Program-made: the position numbers and the translations under genes
Notes under the pieces: model-generated
Database searches by the model: none
Told to the model about the DNA's origin: nothing
The model's input: the letters and a program-made list of their open reading frames with translations, nothing else
Source of the DNA: Candidatus Altimarinota bacterium
Lineage (GTDB): Bacteria; Patescibacteriota; Gracilibacteria; UBA1369; UM-FILTER-53-11
Direction: 5' to 3'
DNA length: 40,000 bases
Assembly (NCBI GenBank): GCA_018061065.1
Contig: JAGOUV010000001.1
Location: 12,217-52,216 of the forward strand
Shown here: in pieces, positions 16,025 through 38,282 of the stretch
Numbering within the stretch: position 1 is the stretch's first letter
Layout: every line of letters starts with the position of its first letter

Positions 16025-17119
16025 ATGGCTTTACAGATTGGTATCGTAGGACTTCCCAATGTGGGAAAATCAACCTTATTTAATGCGCTGACGCGGACGC
16101 AAAAGGCACAGGCGGCTAACTATCCGTTTTGTACGATTGATCCGAATGTCGGTGTGGTAGAAGTGCCTGATGAACGTTTAAAAAAGCTCATTGAGATCGT
16201 GAAGCCACAGCGTGTGTTGCCAGCGATGGTGGAGTTTGTCGATATTGCGGGATTGGTGAAAGGTGCAAGCACGGGTGAGGGATTGGGTAATAAATTTTTG
16301 GCAAATATCAGAGAGTGTAATGCAATTGCACAGGTGGTGCGCGTCTTCCGTGATCCGAATGTAATTCATGTTCATGAGAATGTGGATGCGAAGCGTGATA
16401 TTGAAATTGTTCAGTCTGAGCTCATTTTGGCTGATCTGGACACCGTAACGAAGCGGTTGGGAACTGCACAAAGCACAGCTAAGACAGGCAATCCAAAGGC
16501 AGTGGCGTATGCGGAAATTATCGAAAAATTAAAGAGACATTTAGAGGAGGGGAAATTGGCATTTGTTTTTGCTCAGGATGAGGCGCAGCGTGAGGCAATT
16601 GTAGATCTGCATTTATTGACCAATAAGCCTATTTTATATATCGCAAACGTAGATGAGGCAGATTTAAAAATAATTGATAAGGAAGCGTTGAAGAAAGAGT
16701 TGGGACTCGCGGACGGTACTGAAATTATTCCGATTTCCGCAAAAATTGAGGAGGAGCTTTCACAAATGGGTGAGGAAGATGCAAATGTATTTCTGGAAGA
16801 TTTAGGTTTGAAGGAGCCAGGTCTTTATGCGCTTATTCATGCGGCATATCGGACATTGGGATACATGACATATTTCACTGCGGGAGTGCAAGAAGTGCGT
16901 GCATGGACGATCATGCGTGGAGATACCGCGCCTCAGGCAGCGGGAGTTATTCACACTGATTTTGAAAAAGGATTTATTGCTGCAGAGGTGGTGGGTTATG
17001 AAGATTTTGTAGCCTGTGGTGGTGAGGCAGGTGCAAAAGAAAAAGGAAAACTGCGCATTGAAGGTCGCGATTATGTGATGAAAGATGGTGACGTGGTGCA
17101 TTTTAGATTTAATGTGTAG
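16025..17119 (+). CDS. ychF: Ribosome-binding ATPase YchF
   Basis: GIVGLPNVGKSTLFNALT and a C-terminal TGS-like domain (VMKDGDVVHFRFNV) are present in a 364-aa protein. Confidence 0.95.
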   Translation: MALQIGIVGLPNVGKSTLFNALTRTQKAQAANYPFCTIDPNVGVVEVPDERLKKLIEIVKPQRVLPAMVEFVDIAGLVKGASTGEGLGNKFLANIRECNAIAQVVRVFRDPNVIHVHENVDAKRDIEIVQSELILADLDTVTKRLGTAQSTAKTGNPKAVAYAEIIEKLKRHLEEGKLAFVFAQDEAQREAIVDLHLLTNKPILYIANVDEADLKIIDKEALKKELGLADGTEIIPISAKIEEELSQMGEEDANVFLEDLGLKEPGLYALIHAAYRTLGYMTYFTAGVQEVRAWTIMRGDTAPQAAGVIHTDFEKGFIAAEVVGYEDFVACGGEAGAKEKGKLRIEGRDYVMKDGDVVHFRFNV

Positions 17120-17124
17120 TTGTT

Positions 17125-18237
17125 ATGAAAAAGGTAGTGGTCGCTATGTCGGGTGGAGTAGATTCGTCTGTTGCGGCAGCCCTTTTAAAGGAGCAGGGCT
17201 ATGAGTGTATCGGCGTGCATCTGCACTTCTGGACAGATCCAAAAGTCGACGAGCTTACTAAACATTTGCCGCAAAATAAATGTTGCACATTAGGTGGATT
17301 GGAGGATGCACGTTGGGTGGCGGGGAAGTTAGGTATGCCTTTTTATGTGTTAAATGTTGAGCAGCAGTTTAAGGATCATGTGGTGGATTATTTTTTAGAA
17401 ACCCATGCGCAGGGGCGCACGCCTAATCCGTGTGTTGAGTGCAACAATCATATTAAATTTGGATATTTATGGGATAAAGCGCGCGAGCTTGGAGCTGATT
17501 TTCTGGCTTCTGGCCACTATGCACAGGTACTTGAGGAAGAGGGGGTGAAAACATTGCATACGCCGGTGGATATGGAAAAAGATCAGACGTATTTTTTGTT
17601 TCGCACGAAACAGGCGGTCTTAGATCACGTACTTTTTCCGATGGGGAAATACAAAAAATCCGAAGTGTATGAAATAGCAAAAAAATACGGATTAATTCGC
17701 GTGACGGAAAAACCGGAAAGTCAGGGGCTTTGTTTCTTTTCTGAGGCTTCGCCAAAACATTTTTTGAAAAGGTATCTTGAGGCAAAACATTTTACTCATG
17801 GTTCGATTATCACCGTGGATGGACGTACCATTGGAGAGCATAAAGGGTTGCCTCTCTATACCGTAGGGCAGAGAAGTGGCTTGGGAATCGGAGGAATTAA
17901 GGGCGAGCCGGAAGGCGAGCCCTGGTATGTTGTTCGTTTAGATCCTGAGAAAAATGCACTTATTGTAGGTCGAGAAAAAGATATTTTAGAGTCGCGCATC
18001 GAGTGTGAAGAAGTGCGTTTTATTGGTGAACCTCCGTCTACTCCCATGGAAGTAGAGGTGCGCATACGTCATCGTGGCGAACGTATTCCGGCTACGCTTA
18101 CTGTTAATCAGGACAAAGCAGTTCTTATATGTAGGCATCCTGCGCGTGGAGTTTCTCCCGGTCAGGCTGCGGTATTTTATGTGGGAACAAAGCTGCTGGG
18201 AGGTGGTATAATTACGTTAAGTCGCATTGCGATTTAA
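17125..18237 (+). CDS. mnmA: tRNA-specific 2-thiouridylase MnmA
   Basis: The PP-loop VAMSGGVDSSVAA is present, with catalytic Cys contexts (NPCVECN, GLCF). Confidence 0.95.
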   Translation: MKKVVVAMSGGVDSSVAAALLKEQGYECIGVHLHFWTDPKVDELTKHLPQNKCCTLGGLEDARWVAGKLGMPFYVLNVEQQFKDHVVDYFLETHAQGRTPNPCVECNNHIKFGYLWDKARELGADFLASGHYAQVLEEEGVKTLHTPVDMEKDQTYFLFRTKQAVLDHVLFPMGKYKKSEVYEIAKKYGLIRVTEKPESQGLCFFSEASPKHFLKRYLEAKHFTHGSIITVDGRTIGEHKGLPLYTVGQRSGLGIGGIKGEPEGEPWYVVRLDPEKNALIVGREKDILESRIECEEVRFIGEPPSTPMEVEVRIRHRGERIPATLTVNQDKAVLICRHPARGVSPGQAAVFYVGTKLLGGGIITLSRIAI

Positions 18238-18256
18238 GCAGTGTAGCCCTCCTCTT

Positions 18257-19147
18257 ATGGCTGAGAAAAAAGAAATATTCACACTTCATATTGATGCCTT
18301 ACCCTCAGTTGCTAAGCCTGCAAAAATTCAGGCACAGCAGGTTCATCGTAAGAAATCACTTAATGTAGAACTTCCCGCACCTGTTCTGCCAGCACCTCAA
18401 GCACAAGCCGTAAAGTCCCGTTCGCTCATAGGTAAAATATGGGAAAAAGTTGAGTTTATCTTTGTATCTGGAGCGGTTTTCTTAGTAATTTATGTGATTC
18501 TCAACTGGCAGGCATTGGCACTTAACGCCGAGCATTATTGGGACGTTTGGCGTGGAGTGAAAAGTCCGCTTGAGCACTTGGTGGCAGATACAGAAAATGT
18601 TCCTGAGCGTCTTACACCGACGGTAACTGCATCAGCAAATGGTATTGCCGATGAGTACACCATTCCGCCTCTTGAAATTGAAGTCTATCCTACCGACATG
18701 CGCGTTGTGATTCCACGAATTAATCAAAATGTTCCGGTAGTTGGAGTGAAAAATGAAAACCTTATTGCACGACGCTGGGAAGAATTGGAAAAAGATATTC
18801 AAGGTGCTCTACGCAGCGGTGTGGTGCATTATCCAGGAACCTCATTGCCGGGTGATCGTGGGAATGTGGTAATTACCGGTCACTCATCATACTATGCATG
18901 GGATCCTGGTCGCTTTAAAGATGTGTTTGCGTTGCTGCATGACGTTCAGGTAAAAGACCGTGTGGTGGTCTATTTCAATCAGAAGAAGTTTATTTACGAG
19001 GTCGATAAAAAAGAAGTCGTACTTCCAAAAGATGTCGATGTCTTGAGTGCTACCAATCACGAGCAGCTCACGCTGATCACCTGTACACCTATTGGGACAA
19101 ACTTAAAACGCCTTGTGGTGACCGCGCACTTAGTCGAGCAAAGTTGA
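18257..19147 (+). CDS. Sortase-family transpeptidase with an N-terminal membrane anchor
   Basis: VVITGHSSY (His) ... LTLITCTP (catalytic Cys, TLxTC) ... R near the C terminus, with a TM helix FIFVSGAVFLVIYVIL. I prefer the ATG at 18257 over the TTG at 18227 used by the ORF track. Confidence 0.85.
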   Translation: MAEKKEIFTLHIDALPSVAKPAKIQAQQVHRKKSLNVELPAPVLPAPQAQAVKSRSLIGKIWEKVEFIFVSGAVFLVIYVILNWQALALNAEHYWDVWRGVKSPLEHLVADTENVPERLTPTVTASANGIADEYTIPPLEIEVYPTDMRVVIPRINQNVPVVGVKNENLIARRWEELEKDIQGALRSGVVHYPGTSLPGDRGNVVITGHSSYYAWDPGRFKDVFALLHDVQVKDRVVVYFNQKKFIYEVDKKEVVLPKDVDVLSATNHEQLTLITCTPIGTNLKRLVVTAHLVEQS

Positions 19148-19154
19148 AAACGTT

Positions 19155-19664
19155 CTATAAATTATTCAACTGACTGAGCAAATTCTCCTGCGCTGCAGCT
19201 TCTTGCTCCTTTGTGGTGGCCTCTTCCACGCGGATTTTTTCCCGCTCTTCTTTGTGCTCAAACTCTTTCCATTCCTCAACATGTTTCTGATTAATCTGCT
19301 CAACATTCTGATTATATTGTTTATCGAGTGTCGCCAGCTGCTGCTTCTCATTGTTCAAAATTTCACGCAACTTTTGTACCTGATCATCCGTCATAATCGG
19401 CAAAATCTGAAACCAGTAGCGGCGTTCATCGTCGTTCATTGACTCTGTCTGCAAAATCAACGGCACTAATTCACCAAATTTCTCCTTAACTGTGTCAGGA
19501 ATATTATATTTTTCAAAGAGTGACTGATTTGCGTCATCGCTTGTTGTAGTCGCAGTTGTCGTCTGTGTTGTTGCGGCTGTTGCAGCTTGGGTTATTTGAT
19601 TGAGATCAAATCCGCCTTGAGCTGAAGTACCGGTAGGGGTCTGATTGTTTGTTGTGTCAGCCAT
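19155..19664 (-). CDS. Hypothetical protein: Thr/Gln-rich N terminus plus a conserved helical domain (family copy A)
   Basis: This 169-aa protein is the last gene of the five-gene operon. Residues ~64-135 align without gaps to the C-terminal domain of ORF 32524..33252 (see findings). Confidence 0.7.
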   Translation of the reverse strand: MADTTNNQTPTGTSAQGGFDLNQITQAATAATTQTTTATTTSDDANQSLFEKYNIPDTVKEKFGELVPLILQTESMNDDERRYWFQILPIMTDDQVQKLREILNNEKQQLATLDKQYNQNVEQINQKHVEEWKEFEHKEEREKIRVEEATTKEQEAAAQENLLSQLNNL

Positions 19665-19684
19665 ATGTATCGAGTTATTATACC

Positions 19685-21160
19685 TTATTTTGCAGCCTTT
19701 TGTCCATCTTCAGCAGGTGCTTCTGGTGCAGTAGGGGTGGCAGGTGTCTCGGGAGTCTCAGGGGGAGCCGTGATTACACTTGTGCCCTTATATTTAAAGT
19801 CCACGCCAATATCTTTTGGTGAGAGGAGAGCCAATACCGTCTGATCTTTTCCGTTGGCTACCTTGGTCATTCTGAGCGATAATTTCGTCTTAAATTTATC
19901 GATTCGATCAGCAGGAACATTACTAAAACCCTTAATTTTATTTAATTCATCTGGCTTGCCGAGCAGTGCAAGTACGTCACTGGCTTTTTTATCTGCAAAG
20001 TTACTCGCAAACTTTTTAGGAATGCCCGCATCTTTAAAACGCTGTTCAACATTGAGCATGAGTTTTGCCTCTTCTACACCACTTTTTGCGAGCATATCGG
20101 TGGATACAAAGAATGAAGCGAGTGATTTACCAATCCACGGAATTTTATACAGTGCCATTCCAATACTGGTCATAATCGCTACTATTTTAGGAGCGTAAGC
20201 AGCAAATTTTCCGTCGAATGATGTCTTGAGAAATGATTCAGCCTGTCCGCTTAGAGAAGGATCTTCATTTAGTATCGCATCTTCAGCCTGATCTTCGGCG
20301 GTTTGTGTCGCACCCAGCTCTTTCAATGCTTCCTCAGCTTTTGTTTTTGCCGCCTCAACGGGTGCTTTTTTGGCTTCACTGCCATCATATTCTCCGACTG
20401 CTTTTTTGAGCTCGGCAATGGCATCAACCGTGGCTGCTTTCTCACCGCCTTCATTTGCATTCATATCAGTCTCAAATTTTGCAATATTAATGCCATTTAC
20501 ATAGGCAATGGCATCTTTGAGTCCATCGATTTCGCGTTGTGCCGCATCCACTTTTGTTTGGTCACCATTTGCTGCATCTAACTGTGACTTTAATCCATCA
20601 AGTTTCGTTTTAAGTGTCGTTGCGTTTGGCTCCAGCCCTGAGAGTGTTCCCTCAATACCTTGTTTTTGTGTGGTAGCCGCCTTGCCCACTGCAGCGCGCT
20701 GCTCGCGTTCAGCTTTCCACGCATCAAACCCTGTTTTATTTGCGGACTCAAACCATTGTTCAAAGTTTGCAATAGGTTGGGTTTTGAATTCGGCTACGGC
20801 TGCTTGTGCTCTAGGAAGATCTACTTTCTTACCCCAACCCGGATCTTTCGCATCGGCAATCTCAATTAATTTTGTCTTCACTGCATCCATCCATAAACGA
20901 CGCTGAATATCTGGTGCATCATGCGGAATGCTACTGATTGTATTCTTAAATGCCATCACCAGTTCAGCAACCGGTGGTGAAGATTGATCCTTATCTTCTA
21001 AATCAATCTTTTCAACTAATCCTTTATAAAAGGCAGTGGCAAATTGGTCTAGCTGTGCCTGGGTTTGCCCCGTAATATCAGCACGCGCACCCTCTGGAGC
21101 CGCTGGTTTTTCCGGTACGACGGGTTTAGGTGCTTCTGGTGGTGTCTGTGGATCAGCCAT
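19685..21160 (-). CDS. Hypothetical coiled-coil protein with Pro-rich termini and one internal hydrophobic segment
   Basis: The 491-aa protein has the N terminus MADPQTPPEAPKPVVPEKPAAPE and a C terminus rich in PETPETPATPTAPEAP. It has long Ala/Lys/Glu-rich helices and a hydrophobic stretch IVAIMTSIGMALYKIPWIGKSLASFFV. No signal peptide is present. Confidence 0.7.
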   Translation of the reverse strand: MADPQTPPEAPKPVVPEKPAAPEGARADITGQTQAQLDQFATAFYKGLVEKIDLEDKDQSSPPVAELVMAFKNTISSIPHDAPDIQRRLWMDAVKTKLIEIADAKDPGWGKKVDLPRAQAAVAEFKTQPIANFEQWFESANKTGFDAWKAEREQRAAVGKAATTQKQGIEGTLSGLEPNATTLKTKLDGLKSQLDAANGDQTKVDAAQREIDGLKDAIAYVNGINIAKFETDMNANEGGEKAATVDAIAELKKAVGEYDGSEAKKAPVEAAKTKAEEALKELGATQTAEDQAEDAILNEDPSLSGQAESFLKTSFDGKFAAYAPKIVAIMTSIGMALYKIPWIGKSLASFFVSTDMLAKSGVEEAKLMLNVEQRFKDAGIPKKFASNFADKKASDVLALLGKPDELNKIKGFSNVPADRIDKFKTKLSLRMTKVANGKDQTVLALLSPKDIGVDFKYKGTSVITAPPETPETPATPTAPEAPAEDGQKAAK

Positions 21161-21184
21161 AAAAGTGCTGTTTAAAAGATTTGT

Positions 21185-22093
21185 TTATGCCTTTTTTTCA
21201 GGCTCAGCTTTAGCGGGTGGTGGAGGGGTTTTATCTTTATTTTCAAATCCAGTTATATAAGGCGCGGGATCGATTGCTTTTCCATTATCCATAATACTAA
21301 TCTGCAATGTCTCATTAGCTTTCATATTTCCTACAGTTCCTCCAGGAGCTACTGAGCCAGCTACAAGTCCCTTAGTGTCTACATTTGAATAATGAATGAC
21401 TTTTCCTTCTAATGGTCCATCACTTACCTTTAGATCAAATTCATTAGCTTTGATGTTCTCTATAGTGCCTTTTTCCATGGCGAGAATCGAGGTATCTGCC
21501 ACGACCTTCATACTCAGTACATTGTTTGTGATAACTTTTTCTGGAGGGAATACCTTGAGTTCAGCTCCAAAAGGTGACGAGGTAAAGCCAGGGGCGTTTT
21601 TGCTTTTATCTGCGGCATCTTTACTCTTACTAATGCCAATTTTATCGGTAAATTTCTCAACTAGTTTCACCATTGCATTCATGAGATCTTCAAATAGTTT
21701 TCCCACTTTCTTGAAGAACTCATCTGCGTTACTTGCGCCTGCTGCGGCAAGCGTAGCATTTGCTCCTTGTTCGAGGGGGGTGGTGCCTGTTCCTTCTGGA
21801 GTAGTGGTAGCAGGAGCCGTAGGATTAGCAGGTGGTGCGGACAATGCAGTTTCGGCGGTCTTTTTTAATGCTTCTGCCTTAGCATTATCACCTTGTTCTG
21901 CTGCTTTTAGGGCCGCTTCTACTGCTTGTTTTGCTGCCTCTGGTTTATCAGCGGGAACGGGAGTTTCGGGTCCGACCGGAGCTGCGGTTGGTGCAACGGG
22001 TGCTGTTGGCGCAGCTGCAGGCGCATTCGGCGCCATCCAGACAAAGCGATTTTCTGGTGGTACAGCGGTGGTGATGCAATAAAATAATTTCAT
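21185..22093 (-). CDS. Degenerate LytM/M23-like domain protein (zinc ligands missing) with a Pro/Ala-rich N-terminal half
   Basis: The C-terminal ~110 aa follow the M23 template (SSPFG..., VIHYSNV, GGTVGNM, LQISIMDNGKAIDPAPYI). HxxxD and HxH are replaced by LSMKV and LQISI. The start could be 22093 or the internal ATG at 22036. Confidence 0.6.
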   Translation of the reverse strand: MKLFYCITTAVPPENRFVWMAPNAPAAAPTAPVAPTAAPVGPETPVPADKPEAAKQAVEAALKAAEQGDNAKAEALKKTAETALSAPPANPTAPATTTPEGTGTTPLEQGANATLAAAGASNADEFFKKVGKLFEDLMNAMVKLVEKFTDKIGISKSKDAADKSKNAPGFTSSPFGAELKVFPPEKVITNNVLSMKVVADTSILAMEKGTIENIKANEFDLKVSDGPLEGKVIHYSNVDTKGLVAGSVAPGGTVGNMKANETLQISIMDNGKAIDPAPYITGFENKDKTPPPPAKAEPEKKA

Positions 22094-22096
22094 AAA

Positions 22097-23383
22097 TTAA
22101 CTGTTGTTCGATAAGTCAGCAAAATGGAGTGCAACTTCCGCTACTTGTTTTGCGTAATCTGCACGTTTATCGCAGCCATAATATCCGGGTTTGATTTCTT
22201 CGCGCTGCCAGTATCTCATCTTTTTGAAATTTTCTGGCGACTTATTATCCATCCAGTTTGCGTAGAGGACATAACCAAGTGCTCCCATGTTGTGGGTAAT
22301 ATAAATTTTTTCAACATCACTTGCGTCATTTATTTTCCACTTATCGTTTACACGTTTGTTTACATACGCCATTGATTCCCGAATATTCCAAGCAGTAAAC
22401 ATAATTGCATCACGCGCATTGTGCGGATCAAAATTCGGATCCTGGTGTTTTTGATAGCTTTCACGCGTAGTTTTAATAACCTGAGCATACCCAGCGGCAC
22501 CTGATGATTCATTGACGATAAGCGCATTCCAGCGTGATTCTTTTGAGATAATCGCCACAAGTGTTTCTACCGGAACACCATATTTTGCTGATGCTTCAGG
22601 AAGTGCTTTTTCGATAACCGGCTGGTCTTTCCAGCTGGCGATACCTTCTCGCACACCATCCACAAATTTTTTGTAGAGCTTTGGATTTTTATTCATGCCA
22701 CATTCCTGTGCCTTTTGACGAATGAACTCATCGGTAACTTCACCGCGTTCTTGAGCGGCAGACAGTTCGTTGATAATGCTGCTGGGAACACTCTGTCCAA
22801 CTGCAATACGGAGCTGTCCGGGGAGGTCTTTTGTGTTTATTTTTTTGTACGCACGCAGTGCAGTGTATCGTTCCTGTTGAGATAACTGTCGATCGAGTTT
22901 ATGGGGTTGCCAAGGGGCTTTTCGCATCTTTGAAGTTGCTTCCACTTCTTCAGCTTCTTCAGTAGTGAGGGGTCTCTCTTCGCGTGGGGTGTCCAGTGTT
23001 GCGCGTACATCGTCTGCGGTCGCTCCGTAGGGAGCGAGCAGGTTAAGTAATTTTTCAAATATTTTTTCAACCGCTTCACCTAATTTGCTAAAGGTATCGG
23101 CGAGTTTTCGGGTTGTGTCACAGAGGGTATTGGGATCTGTTTCCAACTTTTCAGCTTCCACTTTTACTCCTGTTGTTTTTGATATTTCATGTGCCTTTTT
23201 GGCCTGTACATCACGAATAATGCCCTTTAATTTTGGTCCGACCGGCTCTGCGGGGACTTTTTCATAAGGTTCTTTTGGTTTCTCTGCGGCTACCACCGGT
23301 TGGGCAGTGGTCGTCTCAGCACCGCGGTAGCACCAGCGTTGAGTTGAGAGAGTTGCTCGGAAATAGTGAGAAAATAATTGCAT
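22097..23383 (-). CDS. Lytic transglycosylase (SLT) domain protein
   Basis: The C-terminal third carries SLT motifs: catalytic E-S (ISKESRWN), GAAGYAQV (G-x-x-Q) and THNMGALGY (the AYNAG position). No signal peptide is present. The start lies 1 nt after the upstream stop. Confidence 0.7.
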   Translation of the reverse strand: MQLFSHYFRATLSTQRWCYRGAETTTAQPVVAAEKPKEPYEKVPAEPVGPKLKGIIRDVQAKKAHEISKTTGVKVEAEKLETDPNTLCDTTRKLADTFSKLGEAVEKIFEKLLNLLAPYGATADDVRATLDTPREERPLTTEEAEEVEATSKMRKAPWQPHKLDRQLSQQERYTALRAYKKINTKDLPGQLRIAVGQSVPSSIINELSAAQERGEVTDEFIRQKAQECGMNKNPKLYKKFVDGVREGIASWKDQPVIEKALPEASAKYGVPVETLVAIISKESRWNALIVNESSGAAGYAQVIKTTRESYQKHQDPNFDPHNARDAIMFTAWNIRESMAYVNKRVNDKWKINDASDVEKIYITHNMGALGYVLYANWMDNKSPENFKKMRYWQREEIKPGYYGCDKRADYAKQVAEVALHFADLSNNS

Positions 23384-23384
23384 G

Positions 23385-23774
23385 TTAGATGACGTATACG
23401 TCGCCTGAAATTTCTTCCAAGCTTTCTTTTGTTAAACGCACTGAGTGAACCAAATTTTCAATCTGAAATGTGGGCTGTTTGTAGTACGTCCATAAGTCGT
23501 AGATCGTACGCAGCGTAGAGCAGAGATTAAACGCATCTAGATCTACTTTTCCCTGTTGTAGCTCATTCAGTTTTTCATAGATGGGCATGTTGATGAGCGA
23601 GCTGGGCATAAGTAAGTTAATTTCCTTGGCTTCTACCTTAGCGACTACCATATTCAAAAACGCCTCATCTTCCTGAGAAATCCCCTGTGGATTCACAACC
23701 GGAGTGTTAAGCATTTTTTGCGTCTCCGGATCGATATCCGATAAACCTGTAGTTGGTGTTTGTTTTGGTTCCAT
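23385..23774 (-). CDS. Hypothetical protein (129 aa), first gene of the five-gene operon
   Basis: The ORF is tightly packed against the next gene. I recognise no family. The C terminus reads TKESLEEISGDVYVI. Confidence 0.55.
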   Translation of the reverse strand: MEPKQTPTTGLSDIDPETQKMLNTPVVNPQGISQEDEAFLNMVVAKVEAKEINLLMPSSLINMPIYEKLNELQQGKVDLDAFNLCSTLRTIYDLWTYYKQPTFQIENLVHSVRLTKESLEEISGDVYVI

Positions 23775-23778
23775 TTAA

Positions 23779-27483
<3,705 letters not shown>

Positions 27484-32523: not shown

Positions 32524-33252
32524 ATGGACGATCAATTCATTCCACCGCCACCTCCACCACCACAAAACTCAGGACAGCCATTTAATGATCCTAATGCGGG
32601 TTATCAGCAACCGTATTCACAACAACAATACGATCCAGCGCAGTATGCGGGAGCTCAGCCAGCAGGCCAGCAACAACAATTTGCGCAGCCAGATCCAACT
32701 CAGTACGCAGGCGATCAATCTCCGCAATATCCGCAAGCCTCAGCACAAGATCCCTACGCTCAGATGGGCTATGATCCTCTCATGGGTCAGGCAGGGCAGG
32801 GAGGAGGCGATGATCCTTTTGGTGATGCAGGCGGTGCGCCTCCTGCAGGTGCTCCACCTCCCAAGCCAAGCAAACCAGCAAATTTTCAGTTGGGTACGCT
32901 TCTCGGGCCAGTTTTAAATATAAAAGTTGCTCCTCATTCATTACAGTTTGATCAGCAGTATTTTTTGCATCTCTTGGCCGGCTCTATTTCCCTTACTAAA
33001 GACGAAAAAATCCGCATTGTTGAATCCATTCCGAAGTTAAAGCAGGTTCAGGTTGATGAGTTGGTTAGAATTTTCGAGGAAGAGCGCGTGAAGTTCGCCG
33101 AACTAGGGGAGGAGCATGTACCTCAGCTTGAGAAACTCGCAAAGCAGCACTATGAAGACTGGATCGATATTGAAATGCGTCAGCAGCAGGTAAGCCAAGC
33201 CTCTACAGACGAGGCTCAGGCAGACGAAATTCGCAAACAATTGGGCCTTTAA
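32524..33252 (+). CDS. Protein with a Gln/Pro/Tyr-rich disordered N-terminal half plus the conserved helical domain (family copy B)
   Basis: The 242-aa protein starts with PPPPPPPQ and has imperfect repeats DP(A/T)QYAG(A/D)Q. Its C-terminal domain SLTKDEKIRIVESIPKLKQVQVDELVRIFEEE...QHYEDW is homologous to ORF 19155..19664. Confidence 0.75.
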   Translation: MDDQFIPPPPPPPQNSGQPFNDPNAGYQQPYSQQQYDPAQYAGAQPAGQQQQFAQPDPTQYAGDQSPQYPQASAQDPYAQMGYDPLMGQAGQGGGDDPFGDAGGAPPAGAPPPKPSKPANFQLGTLLGPVLNIKVAPHSLQFDQQYFLHLLAGSISLTKDEKIRIVESIPKLKQVQVDELVRIFEEERVKFAELGEEHVPQLEKLAKQHYEDWIDIEMRQQQVSQASTDEAQADEIRKQLGL

Positions 33253-33584: not shown

Positions 33585-35150
33585 TTATTGCTGCTGTGGA
33601 ATATCTGGGCTGAAGCATTGCGCTCTTGGACGTGCATTAAATGTGCCCGCTTGAGCAATGATGCGCTTAGTCATCAAACTGCATCTCTGCTGGCCATCTA
33701 CGGGTCTTATATACCATAGGCCATTTGCAGGTGGAGTATCATCATCAAATACGACTGAACAAGACAGCAATTTATCACCAGCAGTACAGTCGCGTGTTAC
33801 CGGTGCACTCCAAGCAGTTGAAGCACCTGCAGGTAGTACCGCAGACGCACCGCTCGTAACAGAGTAAAATGTACCAATACTTCCTGCACTAATGCTATTT
33901 GCGGTCATACTTTGTACAGTTATGTCATCAACATCAAGTGTTCCGTCTATACTTGAATTGCCACCTTCAACATGAAGACCTTTTTCAGACAACATATAAA
34001 TATTTCCTGCGTACATATTGATCTCGTTCAAGCGTTTTACACCATTATCAGCTGCTCGTCCGATGGTAACGAACCCACCGTTTGTAGTTCCAACAGTTAA
34101 ATTGCGTCCCACGTTGACATCACTTGTTGTTGTGACCATGCCATTATCAATGCGTACATTAGTTGCGTTATTACTCTCTTGAATTACTACGTTGCTCGTA
34201 ATATGTGTGCTAGCACTGATAATATCAAGTGAATTTTTTGCGTCGAGTAATGCAGTTTGTGCAAAAATTCTTACACGATTGCTATCATTGTTAGTTCCCT
34301 CAGTTCCAATAATTACGTTTGCACCACCTGTATCGCCACCCAGTAATTCGAGGTTTGCATTATTTCCGGAAATTGTACCGTTTGTGACCCCAACTCCAGC
34401 TACTTGACGGTTAAGGGCGCTACCCTCTACACGAACCCAGTCTTGAGTAACTTCAAGTGTTCCCGATGTCTGCATTGATCCAAGTAAATTTAAGCTGCCG
34501 GTGATTTGATGACGTGATGAACCGTCAGCAGCTCCAATTACCATTGTTCCTGGGCCACTTAGTAAACTACCAGAAGAAAGAAGAAGATCACTTCCTAAGC
34601 TTAAGTTAACAGCACCTCTTAATGTCAGATCGCCAGTAATGCGGTTTGGAACTGCTCCTGCATTTCCATTGCTCTGTCCGCTAACACTTAGTCCACCAGT
34701 TACACGTAGGTTTCCTGACTCATTATTATTTCCTATAATTTCAACTTCATCATAAATCCTTAGAGGATTGACTGCACCGGGTACGCCAGGAGTTGTATTT
34801 GTTATTCCCATTCTAAAATCACCCAATCCTTGCACCATTAGATCGTCACCAACCTGTGCAGGACCATTTTGATTGATCCAAATCGGTGCGTTAATTGCAG
34901 AGAAGCGAGGAACCGGCTGTGTTGCTGCTCCCGGTGCTCCATTTGGCGTAGTTGAACCCAGCGAAATATTTCCACCTGGTTGAATGACTACCGCGCCACC
35001 CGTGACATCACGTAAAACTTGTCCCGCTATATTAGAGTAGGGACTTGCAGGAACGGTGACTTGCTGTGCTTGTGCCGTAGCTCCCAAAGGAATGGCGACC
35101 GCCACAGAAGTAAGTGCACACAGAGTGAGAACGCGACGTAATGTTTTCAT
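33585..35150 (-). CDS. Secreted Gly/Asn/Thr/Ser-rich repeat protein (beta-helix/adhesin-like) with a Cys-containing C-terminal domain
   Basis: The Sec signal is MKTLRRVLTLCALTSVAVAIPLGATAQA. It is followed by ~400 aa of short degenerate G/N/T/S/V-rich beta-strand-like repeats. In the mature protein, Cys occurs only in the last ~70 aa (RDCTAGDKLLSC...RCSL...QCFSP). Confidence 0.65.
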   Translation of the reverse strand: MKTLRRVLTLCALTSVAVAIPLGATAQAQQVTVPASPYSNIAGQVLRDVTGGAVVIQPGGNISLGSTTPNGAPGAATQPVPRFSAINAPIWINQNGPAQVGDDLMVQGLGDFRMGITNTTPGVPGAVNPLRIYDEVEIIGNNNESGNLRVTGGLSVSGQSNGNAGAVPNRITGDLTLRGAVNLSLGSDLLLSSGSLLSGPGTMVIGAADGSSRHQITGSLNLLGSMQTSGTLEVTQDWVRVEGSALNRQVAGVGVTNGTISGNNANLELLGGDTGGANVIIGTEGTNNDSNRVRIFAQTALLDAKNSLDIISASTHITSNVVIQESNNATNVRIDNGMVTTTSDVNVGRNLTVGTTNGGFVTIGRAADNGVKRLNEINMYAGNIYMLSEKGLHVEGGNSSIDGTLDVDDITVQSMTANSISAGSIGTFYSVTSGASAVLPAGASTAWSAPVTRDCTAGDKLLSCSVVFDDDTPPANGLWYIRPVDGQQRCSLMTKRIIAQAGTFNARPRAQCFSPDIPQQQ

Positions 35151-35202
35151 AAATTTGATATTTATTAATTCGTATTAGTATACCTTTTTTTTGCAATTTT
35201 CG

Positions 35203-37011
35203 CTAGTTCAATACACGCGCCTCTTGAATAACATACTTAATATTGTCTCCAATAGATGGAATGGTAGGAGCCCAGATGGGCCAGGTCTTTACTTGGACAT
35301 CCTGAATTTCCTCAGTTTGTTGTTGAAGGTATTCCTGTGCAGCTTCGATACGCAGTCCCGCAATGTGATCCGTTACTTTTTTCAGGAAGCGCTTTCCATT
35401 CTCAGTCTCGGGATCAAGATCATAGACTTGCAGTGCGCGCATGGTGACGGTGATACGACGGCGACCATTTGCCTCATCTCCATCCAAATAGCGGTATGAA
35501 AGATCTTTTTCATCGATGGTGAGGATTTTCTTGTCCGGATCAACACGGCTCAACAGACGCTCTTTTACTTGGTCAACGAGCTCTTGATAATTAAATGCCA
35601 AACCGCTCATGGTATATGAAGCAGAAAGCTCAAATTGATCGATTGATGTACCCACAAGCCCCGGTGGAACAGTAACGGTGGGCTTACCAATAGTAATTAC
35701 ATGACTGTCATTGAGGAGTGAGAGCGAGGTTTTTTTGACTAAATTTTGCTGCTCAAGATAGGATTTAAGATCGGCTGCTGCCTCTTTATTAATTTTTTGC
35801 ACGATCTCAGACTGGGCTGCATCGACATCTTCCTGGCTGATGACTTTTACCACGCTTGTTTCACCACCGGTCATAGCGGCCTTGCTTGTTGCAGTCAATT
35901 TTTTTCGATTTTCTTCATTTTTCAAACCGGGTAGGAAAAAAGTTGTTGGGGGAATATTTCCACGGCTTCCAATGACTTGAAGATTTGCATCAAGTTCATC
36001 GGCGATCACCGCAATATCCAGGGTTCCTGGCTGTGCACCGCGTGCGGGTGGAATACGTACCGCTGTTGGCGTGCGGAATACAATGCCGTCTTCCGTCTGA
36101 AAACGTGTCTTTTCAGCCAAATCCCAAGGGTTCGGACTGGTGTTAGTTACCGTAATTACGCCGCGACTGCGATTTCCTTTTGAAATTTTCCCCGTAGCAA
36201 AATGCACCACTTTTTTAGTGAAAGGCGGTGCCTCAATCGGATAGCTGGCAACAACGATGCTCTGATTACGAGCATTTTCTAAATCACCATTTTTTGCAGG
36301 ATCAAGAAAGTTCACATTAAATGTTTGTTCCAATACGGTGGGGCGGGGAGTCAGATAAACGGTTGCACCCGGCAGCGCAATATACGCAATAGCCAAAAAC
36401 AGCATCACGCTGACTAAAATCAACGTAAAAAGTGCTTGTTTATTAGGTGCACTAAAGACGAGCTTGGTGCCTTTCATCTCCTGTTTTTTCTTCTTCATCT
36501 TATCGCGCACCGATTCTAAAATTGTTTGAATACCGTGAGGACGATTTATTTTAATCACTTCTGATATTGAAATTTTTTCGTTTACACGTTTTGTGGGACG
36601 CTCACTTTTTAGCGGAATTTTGTCATTGGCAAACGTATCGCGTACTACGGCTTTTTTCTGGAGTTGTTCGGCGGCGAGAATACCCAATTTTTCGGCATAT
36701 TTAAGCCCTGTTGGGTCACTCGTTATCATGATGATTTCCTTCTCAACTTCACCTGTTTTTTTTAATAAAATCTTCATATTAAGAAGACTCTGAAACAACA
36801 CGGCTTTACGTGGAACTACGATCGCAATTTTCTTAGCGGGCGTTTTTTTAATCGCATCAAATACATGAGTAATCTCATCATCAATATCGACATACAAAAC
36901 TTTCTCGTGACCAAACGCACGAATTTTTTCGTATACATCAGTATCGCGGATTTTGCGCTTCTCAATGGCAAATCGCGGCCGCAGTCCATCTTGTTTCTTG
37001 CCTTCATCCAT
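35203..37011 (-). CDS. Bitopic membrane protein of unknown function (cytoplasmic N domain, one TM, large external domain)
   Basis: The 602-aa protein has a TM helix ALFTLILVSVMLFLAIAYIAL at about residue 190. Its external part faintly resembles baseplate-J-like beta-rich proteins; this is recollection only and is not verified. The gene starts 11 nt after the ftsA stop. Confidence 0.6.
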   Translation of the reverse strand: MDEGKKQDGLRPRFAIEKRKIRDTDVYEKIRAFGHEKVLYVDIDDEITHVFDAIKKTPAKKIAIVVPRKAVLFQSLLNMKILLKKTGEVEKEIIMITSDPTGLKYAEKLGILAAEQLQKKAVVRDTFANDKIPLKSERPTKRVNEKISISEVIKINRPHGIQTILESVRDKMKKKKQEMKGTKLVFSAPNKQALFTLILVSVMLFLAIAYIALPGATVYLTPRPTVLEQTFNVNFLDPAKNGDLENARNQSIVVASYPIEAPPFTKKVVHFATGKISKGNRSRGVITVTNTSPNPWDLAEKTRFQTEDGIVFRTPTAVRIPPARGAQPGTLDIAVIADELDANLQVIGSRGNIPPTTFFLPGLKNEENRKKLTATSKAAMTGGETSVVKVISQEDVDAAQSEIVQKINKEAAADLKSYLEQQNLVKKTSLSLLNDSHVITIGKPTVTVPPGLVGTSIDQFELSASYTMSGLAFNYQELVDQVKERLLSRVDPDKKILTIDEKDLSYRYLDGDEANGRRRITVTMRALQVYDLDPETENGKRFLKKVTDHIAGLRIEAAQEYLQQQTEEIQDVQVKTWPIWAPTIPSIGDNIKYVIQEARVLN

Positions 37012-37022
37012 GGGCTTTATAA

Positions 37023-38282
37023 TTACATTTGCATAAGACGAATCACTTTGCGCAGCAAGGTGGTCATGAGATGTTCTTCATCGATATACTCCACGCCCAG
37101 CCGCGCCAGACCCAGCGGAGTAATATCTTGTGGATCATTCAGTCGACGTGTGTGATCCTTAATATTAGTTACCATTTTGGGCGTAAGAATCTCCACAATA
37201 GGAGTCTTCTTAAAAGGCATATCTTTATACCACTCGGTCGTGGTCATGAGCTGACGAATTTCTGGTAAGTGGGAACCACCGCCACACATATAAATATGGT
37301 GAGGCAAAACTTCCTGGCCAAACTCACCAAGCGTAATGATTATTCCCGAGAGCCACACATCTGCATCCGTTTCCATTGCCTCTTTTACGACGCGCTCAGA
37401 TTGTTTTTCTAGTCCACCTTTTCCATATGCCTGCTTAATCGACTCCGCTTCAGAAAGCGAAATATTCAGTACCGAGGCGAGCCGTTTAGTAAATGTACGT
37501 CCGCCGAGCGTAAACATTTTAGTAGCCTCTACGCAGCCGTTACGCACGAGTGCAATATCAGTAGTTCCTCCGCCAATATCGATAAACAATGCAGAGAGCG
37601 GATTATCCGGTGAGGGATCCAGCACCTGTGCCAGTGCATACGGTTCGGCAGTAATCGTCATAATATTCAAATTCAATTCGGCGGCAATAGTTTGCAACGC
37701 ACCGAAATGCACGAGTGGCGCAAAGGCGTTAAAGAGCGCGATCTCGATTTCTTTTCCTTGAAATCCTATGGGATTTTTTACTGAGAACCCATCGATGCGA
37801 ACATCGACGAGCGCCGCATTGACGAGTTTAATATCAATTTCACTACACCCCGTCTCACTTGCCAGCTGAGTGCGCGTTTCTTCAAAAGATTTCCACTGCA
37901 CTTTGTGAATAATTTGCTTGAGTTCATGAAGATCAATTTTTGTCTGTGGTTCTTTTCTCGTATAGACCGTTCGATAGGTAATGCCTTTTACTAATTCACC
38001 CGCGATTCCCAAAACTACATCGCTCGGATACATGTCCGCTTCATTGCATGCCTGTTCAAGCGCTTGAGAGCAATTTTCAATTACTCCTGCAATATCCAAA
38101 ACAGCACCACTATTCATATCGCCGGGCTTCTGGGGAACCTTTCCCACGCCGCGAATATGGGCTATGTCACCAGCTGCTTCACAGACGAGCGCCTTTACGA
38201 CATCAGTCCCGATATCGAGCGCCAAGAATCCTCCGCCGCGCTTCTGTGTTTCATTTTTTTTCCTCCGTAGAAAGTTCAACAT
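37023..38282 (-). CDS. ftsA: Cell division protein FtsA (actin-fold ATPase)
   Basis: LALDIGTDVVKALV, FIDIGGGTTDIALV...GGRTFTKRLA...AESIKQAYG and MCGGGSHLPEI are present, along with an inserted 1C-like subdomain and a C-terminal amphipathic helix (TTLLRKVIRLMQM). Confidence 0.8.
   Translation of the reverse strand: MLNFLRRKKNETQKRGGGFLALDIGTDVVKALVCEAAGDIAHIRGVGKVPQKPGDMNSGAVLDIAGVIENCSQALEQACNEADMYPSDVVLGIAGELVKGITYRTVYTRKEPQTKIDLHELKQIIHKVQWKSFEETRTQLASETGCSEIDIKLVNAALVDVRIDGFSVKNPIGFQGKEIEIALFNAFAPLVHFGALQTIAAELNLNIMTITAEPYALAQVLDPSPDNPLSALFIDIGGGTTDIALVRNGCVEATKMFTLGGRTFTKRLASVLNISLSEAESIKQAYGKGGLEKQSERVVKEAMETDADVWLSGIIITLGEFGQEVLPHHIYMCGGGSHLPEIRQLMTTTEWYKDMPFKKTPIVEILTPKMVTNIKDHTRRLNDPQDITPLGLARLGVEYIDEEHLMTTLLRKVIRLMQM

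Follow-up and report, generated by a model that had tools for sequence, protein, structure and literature searches.

The logic by which a catalytically dead LytM domain is paired with an enzyme that cuts the cell wall is already known. In Escherichia coli the degenerate LytM (dLytM) proteins EnvC and NlpD activate the amidases AmiA, AmiB and AmiC, EnvC acting under FtsEX and NlpD being a lipoprotein, and DipM of Caulobacter crescentus and its partners are Sec-exported periplasmic proteins, of which DipM carries LysM domains. DipM is a LytM factor that controls SdpA and SdpB, which are soluble lytic transglycosylases (PMC10336132), PrgK of the pCF10 type IV secretion system (T4SS) holds a degenerate LytM, an SLT and a CHAP domain, the dead LytM regulating the activity of the SLT domain (PMC11323569), and Csd1 and Csd2 of Helicobacter pylori form a heterodimer of an active and an inactive M23 protein (PMC5053510). 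Here we compare with these systems a cluster of five genes, g1 to g5, found at 19155..23774 on the minus strand of a 40,000-nucleotide (nt) stretch from a Candidatus Altimarinota bacterium (contig JAGOUV010000001.1, positions 12,217 to 52,216; hereafter the window, to which coordinates refer unless a related locus is named), in which g2 encodes a predicted lytic transglycosylase and g3 a LytM protein that appears to be catalytically dead.

What the cluster would have in common with DipM and SdpA/B is the functional pairing of a dead LytM protein with an SLT-type transglycosylase in a chromosomal wall-remodelling setting. The gene for DipM is however not in an operon with those of its targets, whereas g2 and g3 are adjacent, and the g2 and g3 proteins lack both a signal and LysM domains and instead have a leader and helix module in common. 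PrgK likewise combines a degenerate LytM with SLT, and the sister lineages L006, L009 and L011 (L numbers being our handles for related loci) fuse SLT to M23, but PrgK is a single membrane-anchored protein of a conjugation cluster and is PrgL-targeted, whereas two proteins and no CHAP domain are found here. With EnvC and NlpD the cluster would share the principle that an inactive LytM regulates a wall hydrolase, and the Ala/Lys/Glu-rich g4 and g5 proteins, the latter with a long predicted helix, are reminiscent of the coiled coil of EnvC; what is regulated there is, however, an amidase, and neither an amidase nor FtsEX nor a lipobox is present here. As in the Csd1-Csd2 pair, an intact M23 domain (on g2) is encoded beside a degenerate one (g3) in L006, L009 and L011, but the window has lost the active M23 and has only SLT left, and the Csd proteins are membrane-anchored or ordinarily exported. 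A described counterpart of such a leader- and helix-tagged pair without signals, of the frame in which g1 and g5 enclose a variable slot, or of the g1, g4 and g5 families was found neither in Pfam, NCBIfam, PHROGs or PDB nor in the papers searched.

The predicted transglycosylase g2 and the LytM protein g3

The five genes are co-oriented and closely spaced, 1, 3, 24 and 20 nt lying between successive members, and the cluster is separated by 19 nt from ligA at one end and by 7 nt from a convergent sortase gene at the other. The open reading frames (ORFs), coordinates, orientation, gaps and spacers listed in a first-pass annotation, which had been made from the letters alone, were all confirmed from ORF translations, and every one of the motifs that it quoted (KESRWN, GAAGYAQV and THNMG in g2, LSMKV and LQISI in g3) is present in these.

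The g2 protein (22097..23383, minus strand; 428 amino acids (aa)) consists of a leader-like N-terminus, a linker rich in Pro, an amphipathic helix and, at the C-terminus, an SLT domain (aa 252-371; 22271..22630). That this is an SLT protein had been proposed from the motifs and is borne out by profile search, as it passes the cut-offs of both SLT_4 (PF19489; 43.7 bits, E 3e-11, cut-off 27) and SLT (PF01464; 34.8 bits, E 1.3e-8, cut-off 21.3). Family 1 transglycosylases are marked by a catalytic Glu in an E-S motif, followed by G-x-x-Q and (A/T)-x-N-x-G, and g2 retains ISKESRWN with its Glu-Ser, GAAGYAQV and THNMG, the counterpart in the related locus L002 having ISKESSWN, AAGLAQG and THNMG. 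Profile and motifs together show g2 to be, by prediction, a family-1-type lytic transglycosylase with its Glu-Ser catalytic motif intact. Its chemistry cannot however be assumed, since the SLT domain of PrgK proved to be a muramidase (PMC11323569). In L006, L009 and L011 the g2 orthologue has, in addition to SLT, an M23 domain that is fully intact (E 1e-23 to 1e-26), and a dLytM gene comes after it; the lineage of the window and L002 has lost the active M23 endopeptidase domain from g2.

The g3 protein (21185..22093, minus strand; 302 aa) starts with a leader and a linker rich in Pro, Ala and Thr; an amphipathic helix (aa 123-153) comes next, and then a degenerate M23/LytM domain (aa ~185-280; 21254..21541). 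Peptidase_M23 is the top Pfam match of this domain, but at E 0.1 and 13.2 bits the window protein lies under the 28.7-bit cut-off; the L002 orthologue matches at E 1.1e-4, and the cut-off is passed by two further orthologues, L003-644 (36.5 bits) and L009-464 (38.3 bits). The M23 homology of g3 is nonetheless supported by transitivity, since the latter two orthologues are linked to it by BLAST clustering and since intact M23 domains and lysostaphin can be aligned in register with the domains of the g3 family. The g3 domain has all four metal or catalytic residues replaced: where intact domains have HxxxD, the YxHL histidine and HxH, it reads …NNVLS…, YSNV and LQIS, and the loop before HxH is deleted. 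These losses of residues and loop are common to the window domain and all six domains orthologous to it, whereas the g2-borne M23 domains of L006, L009 and L011 retain every metal and catalytic residue. The call of a degenerate LytM made in the first-pass annotation therefore holds, being borne out by the Pfam scores of the orthologues and by the alignment to intact M23 domains, and the residues lost show g3 to be what can be predicted to be a catalytically dead LytM (M23) protein rather than an enzyme. The domain has no match below E 0.1 among PDB profiles, and a word-index homology search with full-length g3 returned only itself, low-complexity words swamping the candidates.

Furthermore, a GGFMxLLEKLIEKLxKLMEKI-like amphipathic helix is found in both the g2 and the g3 families just before the catalytic or dLytM domain. 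In the window g2 it occupies aa ~86-118 (TLCDTTRKLADTFSKLGEAVEKIFEKLLNLL; 23030..23128, minus strand) and resembles the helix that precedes dLytM in the g3 family. A hidden Markov model of six g3-family helices, searched against 5592 ORFs, has the window g2 helix as its best non-training match (E 0.007, 14.6 bits), so that a helix common to the two families is suggestive, not strong.

The g1-g5 pair, its variable slot and the surrounding genes

Word-index searches yielded almost no relatives of the cluster, the C-terminal part of g2 giving just one, a 50%-identical SLT protein, which led to L002. This contig carries the same five genes in the same order with the same ligA and sortase flanks, and protein identity to the window is 81% for g1, 76% for g5 and 73% for the sortase as against 48% for g2, 43% for g4 and 28% for g3. 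An independent contig thus repeats both order and flanks although its proteins are only 28 to 81% identical, and the arrangement exceeds chance. A further locus, L003, found by way of the conserved block of g5, has the same flanks around four genes, namely g1, a 644-aa protein with two dLytM domains, g4 and g5.

Scanning one genome per species gave 90 relatives of g5, of which 80 loci were fetched, and the counts given here are over 86 loci in which all ORFs were searched with jackhmmer. The g5 gene is found in 86 of these, the sortase gene in 84, g1 and ligA in 71 each, g2 in 9 and g4 in 9-10, and the common map, with srt for the sortase gene, is ligA< g1> [slot] g5> <srt <mnmA. The sortase gene is a neighbour of g5 in 84 of the 86 loci and co-directional with it in four, and the g1/g5 pair occurs in about 70 to 86 loci of Peribacteria or Peregrinibacteria. 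The slot between the two is empty in 13 loci, only 16 to 73 nt then separating g1 from g5; most loci have a single gene in it, and the subclade of the window has as many as four. Slot proteins belong to more than ten unrelated BLAST families, and when 69 of them were searched against Pfam, 9 contained M23, 5 SLT and 1 Peptidase_M15_4, the rest being uninformative. Variants of the gene order are seen in L003, L006, L007, L008, L009 and L011. In L007 (9337..16425 of that locus) the srt-g5 pair is inverted relative to the other genes, leaving g1-g2-(411 aa)-g4 as a separate unit, and g5 is therefore separable from g1-g4. The wider neighbourhood, comprising dnaX, ligA, srt, mnmA and ychF, is syntenic across the relatives.

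Synteny in related genomes, put forward earlier as something to look for, is thus found, the order recurring between ligA and the sortase gene, but the accompanying idea of the five genes as one dedicated system is not upheld, since g1 and g5 form an older pair with zero to four variable genes of more than ten families between them. We can conclude that g1 and g5 are an ancient, slowly evolving pair and that the set of hydrolase, dLytM and g4 fills the slot only in a small subclade.

The 19-nt spacer between the divergent g1 and ligA genes (GGTATAATTATATGATTAA; 23775..23793) contains overlapping TATAAT boxes on both strands, as would be expected of a bidirectional promoter whose leader is short or absent. 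TATAAT boxes 6 to 12 nt before the ATG are likewise found for g5, ychF, lgt and a g5 paralogue, as they are for g1 and ligA themselves, but none was seen in the sequences upstream of g2, g3 or g4, and a Shine-Dalgarno motif is absent before any gene in the window; the positions of the boxes suggest that the mRNAs are leaderless or near-leaderless. As g2, g3 and g4 are tightly packed in the same orientation and without -10 boxes of their own, they would depend on the g1 promoter. Just upstream of g5 a promoter-like site is present on the minus strand (19677..19706; TGGACA, 18 nt, TATAAT; 11/12 matches), and given this site g5 can probably be transcribed independently. The placement of the -10 boxes thus suggests a g1-g4(-g5) transcript plus a separate start for g5. 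Base composition is flat over the region, and no terminator-like site was found on the minus strand within the cluster. It should also be mentioned that in the window g2, g3 and g4 share one reading frame, the first two being separated by TAA and 1 codon and the last two by TAA and 8 codons. A read-through polyprotein of the three is ruled out, however, since they are out of frame in L002, and the shared frame is probably a coincidence.

The convergent sortase gene (18227..19147, plus strand) matches Pfam Sortase at E 3.8e-26. Its longest ORF has a TTG start and overlaps the end of mnmA by 11 nt (18227..18237), but to judge from the L002 orthologue and from the L001 gene call, translation is more likely to begin at the ATG ten codons downstream. 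C-termini resembling those of sortase substrates, with an LPXTG-like motif, a hydrophobic anchor and a basic tail, were not seen by eye in the five translations or in their L002 and L003 orthologues, no motif search having been run.

Housekeeping genes are spread across the 40 kb, including those of SufBC, Lgt, LeuRS, CdaA, YbbR, AroD, YchF, MnmA, LigA, DnaX, an FtsA-like protein and Alr. When window ORFs of at least 110 aa were scanned with Pfam, phage, conjugation and secretion-ATPase families were not detected, nor were VirB4, VirD4 or other T4SS genes, and none of the latter were noticed in the gene maps of the 86 relatives, the flanks of which were not Pfam-scanned. Searches with g2 by tblastn gave zero matches among 50,697 phage records and zero among plasmids. 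PHROG matches to transglycosylase, endolysin, tail and tape-measure families are restricted to the catalytic domains, and g1, g3, g4 and g5 have no PHROG match. The lack of a phage, plasmid or conjugation context, already remarked upon in the first-pass annotation, is therefore corroborated by Pfam, by PHROG, by the phage and plasmid searches and by the fixed position across species. The housekeeping flanks, the empty phage search, the PHROG matches confined to catalytic domains and the fixed position speak against a prophage lysis cassette or tail lysin, and the lack of any T4SS ATPase or channel family in the scanned ORFs of the window, together with the empty plasmid search, speaks against a T4SS-associated hydrolase of the VirB1 or PrgK kind.

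TGA terminates 6 of 25 well-supported genes, so that the standard code applies and genetic code 25 is ruled out. The NCBI record carries the label 'Candidatus Gracilibacteria bacterium', a name usually tied to code 25, and the relatives found by the g5 search are labelled Peribacteria or Peregrinibacteria. Elsewhere in the window, two large proteins without Pfam matches are encoded at 33585..37011 (minus strand) directly downstream of the FtsA-like gene on the same strand (37023..38282), one a Gly/Asn/Ser/Thr-rich protein of 521 aa with a Sec signal and the other a protein of 602 aa with one internal hydrophobic helix.

N-termini and the proteins without annotation

A Sec-type N-terminus and a lipobox are lacking in all five proteins, as had been stated from inspection and is borne out by a hydropathy scan, this being a simple scan rather than SignalP and Tat being judged by eye only. 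Over the first 60 aa the 10-residue Kyte-Doolittle mean peaks at 0.5 to 1.7 in the five proteins, as against 2.3 to 3.3 for controls within the window (the lipoproteins 30555 and 8312, the Sec protein 33585 and the prepilin 7746). Of the three lipoproteins and one Sec protein to which the first-pass annotation had appealed for comparison, two lipoproteins and the Sec protein were verified. Missed upstream starts are excluded by the tiny intergenic gaps. A Tat signal is rejected, no twin-arginine consensus and no h-region being seen, and so is a double-glycine leader of the kind processed by peptidase-containing ATP-binding cassette (ABC) transporters, since GG follows the leader in some proteins only, the conserved positions do not fit, and the Pfam matches of window ORFs of at least 110 aa include no ABC exporter. 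The absence of a signal extends to the orthologues with intact SLT and M23 domains, and because these too must reach peptidoglycan, the missing signal is a real puzzle and not an annotation slip.

Many slot proteins, for example MIFSHYYNSWSTRPARLVWKGG and MKPIHTLYSNSLKPSRLVWQTAAP, start instead with a peptide of ~20 aa ending in [AK]-R-[LF]-V-[WF], after which comes a stretch rich in Pro, Ala and Thr. The window g3 has a leader of this R-[LF]-V-[WF] family (MKLFYCITTAVPPENRFVWM; 22034..22093, minus strand) ending in …NRFVW and continuing to …NRFVWM, and g2 has a looser version, …QRWCYRG. The strict motif is enriched in the slot, where 11 of 72 genes have it compared with 4 of the 1863 remaining ORFs of 100 aa or more (Fisher p 1e-13), and the peptide is evidently translated, since synonymous changes are all that distinguishes two copies in L002. 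Two further leader proteins (MIINHQKNKFQIFSKRLVFQ… and MLINHYTNKLQIFSKRLVFQ…) are found at 16384..18910 of L074, ~6 kb from a g1-g5 pair with an empty slot, and as they lie outside the slot, the leader family is not confined to it. The 131-aa gene between these two was considered as a g5 paralogue, which is ruled out by the lack of a match to the domain profile even at E 10.

The first gene of the operon, g1 (23385..23774, minus strand; an ORF of 129 aa), belongs to a lineage-specific family, in which an alignment of 70 sequences has Y66, R89, K116 and E120 invariant. It has no relative in Pfam or PDB, PDB profiles giving nothing below E 0.1, and a Pfam scan of the 70 orthologues at E<=1 gave scattered noise only, such as GldN in 7 of 70 at E>=0.009. 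A single-sequence AlphaFold2 model reached a pLDDT of 47 and was not used.

The g4 protein (19685..21160, minus strand; 491 aa) has Pro-rich ends and an Ala/Lys/Glu-rich middle, for which a helical structure is predicted from composition. Its conserved C-terminal region (aa 296-465), which jackhmmer confines to ~9 loci of the subclade, opens with a helix (aa ~319-350) that is the hydrophobic stretch pointed out in the first-pass annotation. This stretch is real but borderline, its KD19 of 1.49 being below the usual threshold of 1.6, and the orthologues reach 1.63 to 1.91. No Pfam or PHROG family matches g4, apart from a sub-threshold MapZ_EC1 at E 7e-4, and a metagenome scan with the C-terminal alignment returned only the source contig of L008.

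The g5 protein (19155..19664, minus strand; 169 aa) comprises a disordered Thr/Gln/Ala-rich N-terminus, a helical domain of ~70 aa (aa 48-122; 19299..19523) with the pattern …SESMxDxERxYWFxILPxMTxEQ…L..IL..EK..L…, and a long C-terminal helix. An AlphaFold2 model from a 9-sequence alignment (pLDDT 77) predicts residues 1-43 to be disordered, short helices at 57-90 and a single helix at 93-168, and it has no fold match in PDB or BFVD, a PDB profile search likewise giving nothing below E 0.1. The domain itself has no Pfam, PDB or Foldseek match, but in an exhaustive profile search it is found in 1255 clusters at E<=1e-3 among 1.84 billion representatives, mostly in proteins of 120 to 250 aa. It is repeated three or four times in giant NB-ARC/CHAT/SIR2/FGE-sulfatase/TPR proteins, terminates a caspase-TPR protein, follows the transmembrane helix of a Ser/Thr kinase, and stands behind ordinary Sec or lipoprotein signals in proteins of phyla outside the candidate phyla radiation (CPR), and the small homologues outside the clade have unrelated neighbourhoods. 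It looks like an undescribed widespread domain, which works in several contexts and in some bacteria probably outside the cytoplasm. The first-pass annotation had the three helical proteins of the cluster as scaffolds, a role that would be putative at best, given the many other settings in which the g5 domain is met. A paralogue of 242 aa with a Pro/Gln/Tyr/Gly-rich N-terminus is encoded in the window at 32524..33252 (plus strand), where no hydrolase gene adjoins it; only its jackhmmer value (E 3.2e-18) is independent, since the profile giving the hmmsearch value of E 1.3e-27 included the same sequence.

Possible functions of the operon

The reading that we favour, in which our confidence and our doubt are evenly balanced, is that of a vertically inherited chromosomal operon for the controlled cutting of peptidoglycan in the remodelling of the cell's own wall. 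The genes g2, g3 and g4 were acquired together in one subclade and sit between the older g1 and g5, and according to this model g3 would bind and tune the g2 enzyme, as other dead LytM domains do. The common N-terminal module of R-L-V-W leader, Pro-rich spacer and amphipathic helix may target g2 and g3 to one partner or place, the partner most likely being g4 and/or the g1 and g5 proteins. The proteins would then leave the cytoplasm by a route without a Sec-type signal in order to meet their substrate. Their likeliest target would be the own wall, for instance in making space for a surface structure or in cell separation, this being the weakest step of the model. The pairing of an enzyme with a dLytM adaptor, suggested already in the first-pass annotation, is plausible by precedent, namely that of DipM with SdpA/B (PMC10336132) and of PrgK (PMC11323569).

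Several observations are in poor agreement with this model. That g3 regulates g2 is suggested by their adjacency and co-conservation and by the DipM-SdpA/B and PrgK precedents, but the cluster in L003 is without SLT, and the dLytM protein there cannot depend on one. No exporter was found, there being no ABC exporter among the Pfam matches of the window and the relatives not having been scanned for one, so that the non-classical route proposed earlier is arrived at by elimination. Nor does the cluster hold a clear membrane protein, the helix of g4 being borderline, and the leader is facultative, since it is absent from the window g4, from all L007 orthologues of g2, g3 and g4, and from g2 of L011. 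In most genomes, furthermore, the g1-g5 slot holds proteins without a wall-hydrolase domain, or nothing. Finally g2-g4, at 28 to 48% identity, diverge faster than g1, g5 and the sortase, at 73 to 81%, which agrees no less well with an accessory or outward-facing role than with a housekeeping one.

A broader alternative, which we think unlikely, is that g1 and g5 are adaptors for a hitherto unrecognised delivery to the envelope or beyond that is independent of a Sec signal and operates in Peribacteria and Peregrinibacteria, the slot holding cargo tagged by the R-L-V-W leader, Pro-rich spacer and amphipathic helix that would include active hydrolases (SLT, SLT plus M23).

It is likewise improbable, in our estimate, that we are not dealing with one system at all, g1 and g5 being housekeeping genes with promoters of their own, the space between them a permissive insertion site, and g2-g4 an unrelated wall-hydrolase cassette. 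The direct adjacency of g1 and g5 in the 13 loci with an empty slot speaks for such a view, as does the fact that g5 has its own promoter-like site and is separable from g1-g4, and the many unrelated contexts of the g5 domain outside the clade point the same way; it should also be mentioned that the whole neighbourhood is syntenic and that adjacency is therefore weak evidence. However, the inserted genes are packed with gaps of 1 to 24 nt, co-oriented and without -10 boxes of their own, the slot has been used repeatedly by many families across the clade, and g1 remains with g2-g4 after the rearrangement in L007, all of which speaks against it.

A weapon directed at a host or competitor seems distinctly improbable. 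The slot would in that case hold exchangeable, fast-evolving cargo delivered outward, here a lytic transglycosylase and its partners for breaching the wall of another cell, with g1 and g5 as adaptors or chaperones and the R-L-V-W leader as the delivery tag, and the notion draws on the high variability of a slot of zero to four genes from more than ten families between conserved flanks, on the fast divergence of the cargo relative to the flanks, and on the occurrence of a single N-terminal module before C-termini as varied as SLT, SLT plus M23, one or two dLytM and unknown domains. Proteins with an RLVF leader are moreover found outside the slot in L074, and related lineages such as Absconditabacteria are predatory (PMC11452946). 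On the other hand, no secretion machine, immunity gene or toxin domain is found in or near the 86 loci examined, most slot proteins have no recognisable enzyme domain, many of the hydrolase orthologues lack the leader, and Peribacteria have not been shown to be epibionts (PMC4736985). Nothing observed here bears on the suggestion in the first-pass annotation that the wall of a host could be the target in an epibiont; the organism uses the standard code and groups with Peribacteria and Peregrinibacteria, which are not shown to be epibionts.

Very improbable, lastly, is an endolysin-type autolysis or lysis-dependent release, in which the hydrolases would build up in the cytoplasm and be freed through a holin-like lesion made by g4, as in phage cassettes or holin/endolysin-dependent (type 10) secretion. 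In its favour, SLT and M23 hydrolases without signals are characteristic of endolysins and tail lysins of phages, PHROGs of such proteins and of tape-measure proteins match the catalytic domains, and g4 holds the only hydrophobic helix of the cluster. However, the phage-family matches extend neither beyond these domains nor to g1, g3, g4 or g5, the search of phage records with g2 was empty, the neighbourhood contains no phage genes, and many species have the locus at the same place between ligA and the sortase gene. The g4 proteins are 491 to 873 aa long, apparently largely helical and borderline hydrophobic without the two or more transmembrane helices of a holin, and the conserved N-terminal leader would be left without a role.

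Returning to the model of an operon for the controlled cutting of the own wall, the case adds an example with separate genes and without signals to the short list of pairings between a dead LytM and a transglycosylase, and three unannotated protein families, g1, g4 and the g5 domain, are defined along with it. Peptidoglycan cutters must act outside the membrane, and intact enzymes are here without ordinary signals even though the same genome uses such signals. No member of the clade has been cultured, and the export route, once known, would supply a missing piece of CPR cell biology and could also reveal a new targeting signal.

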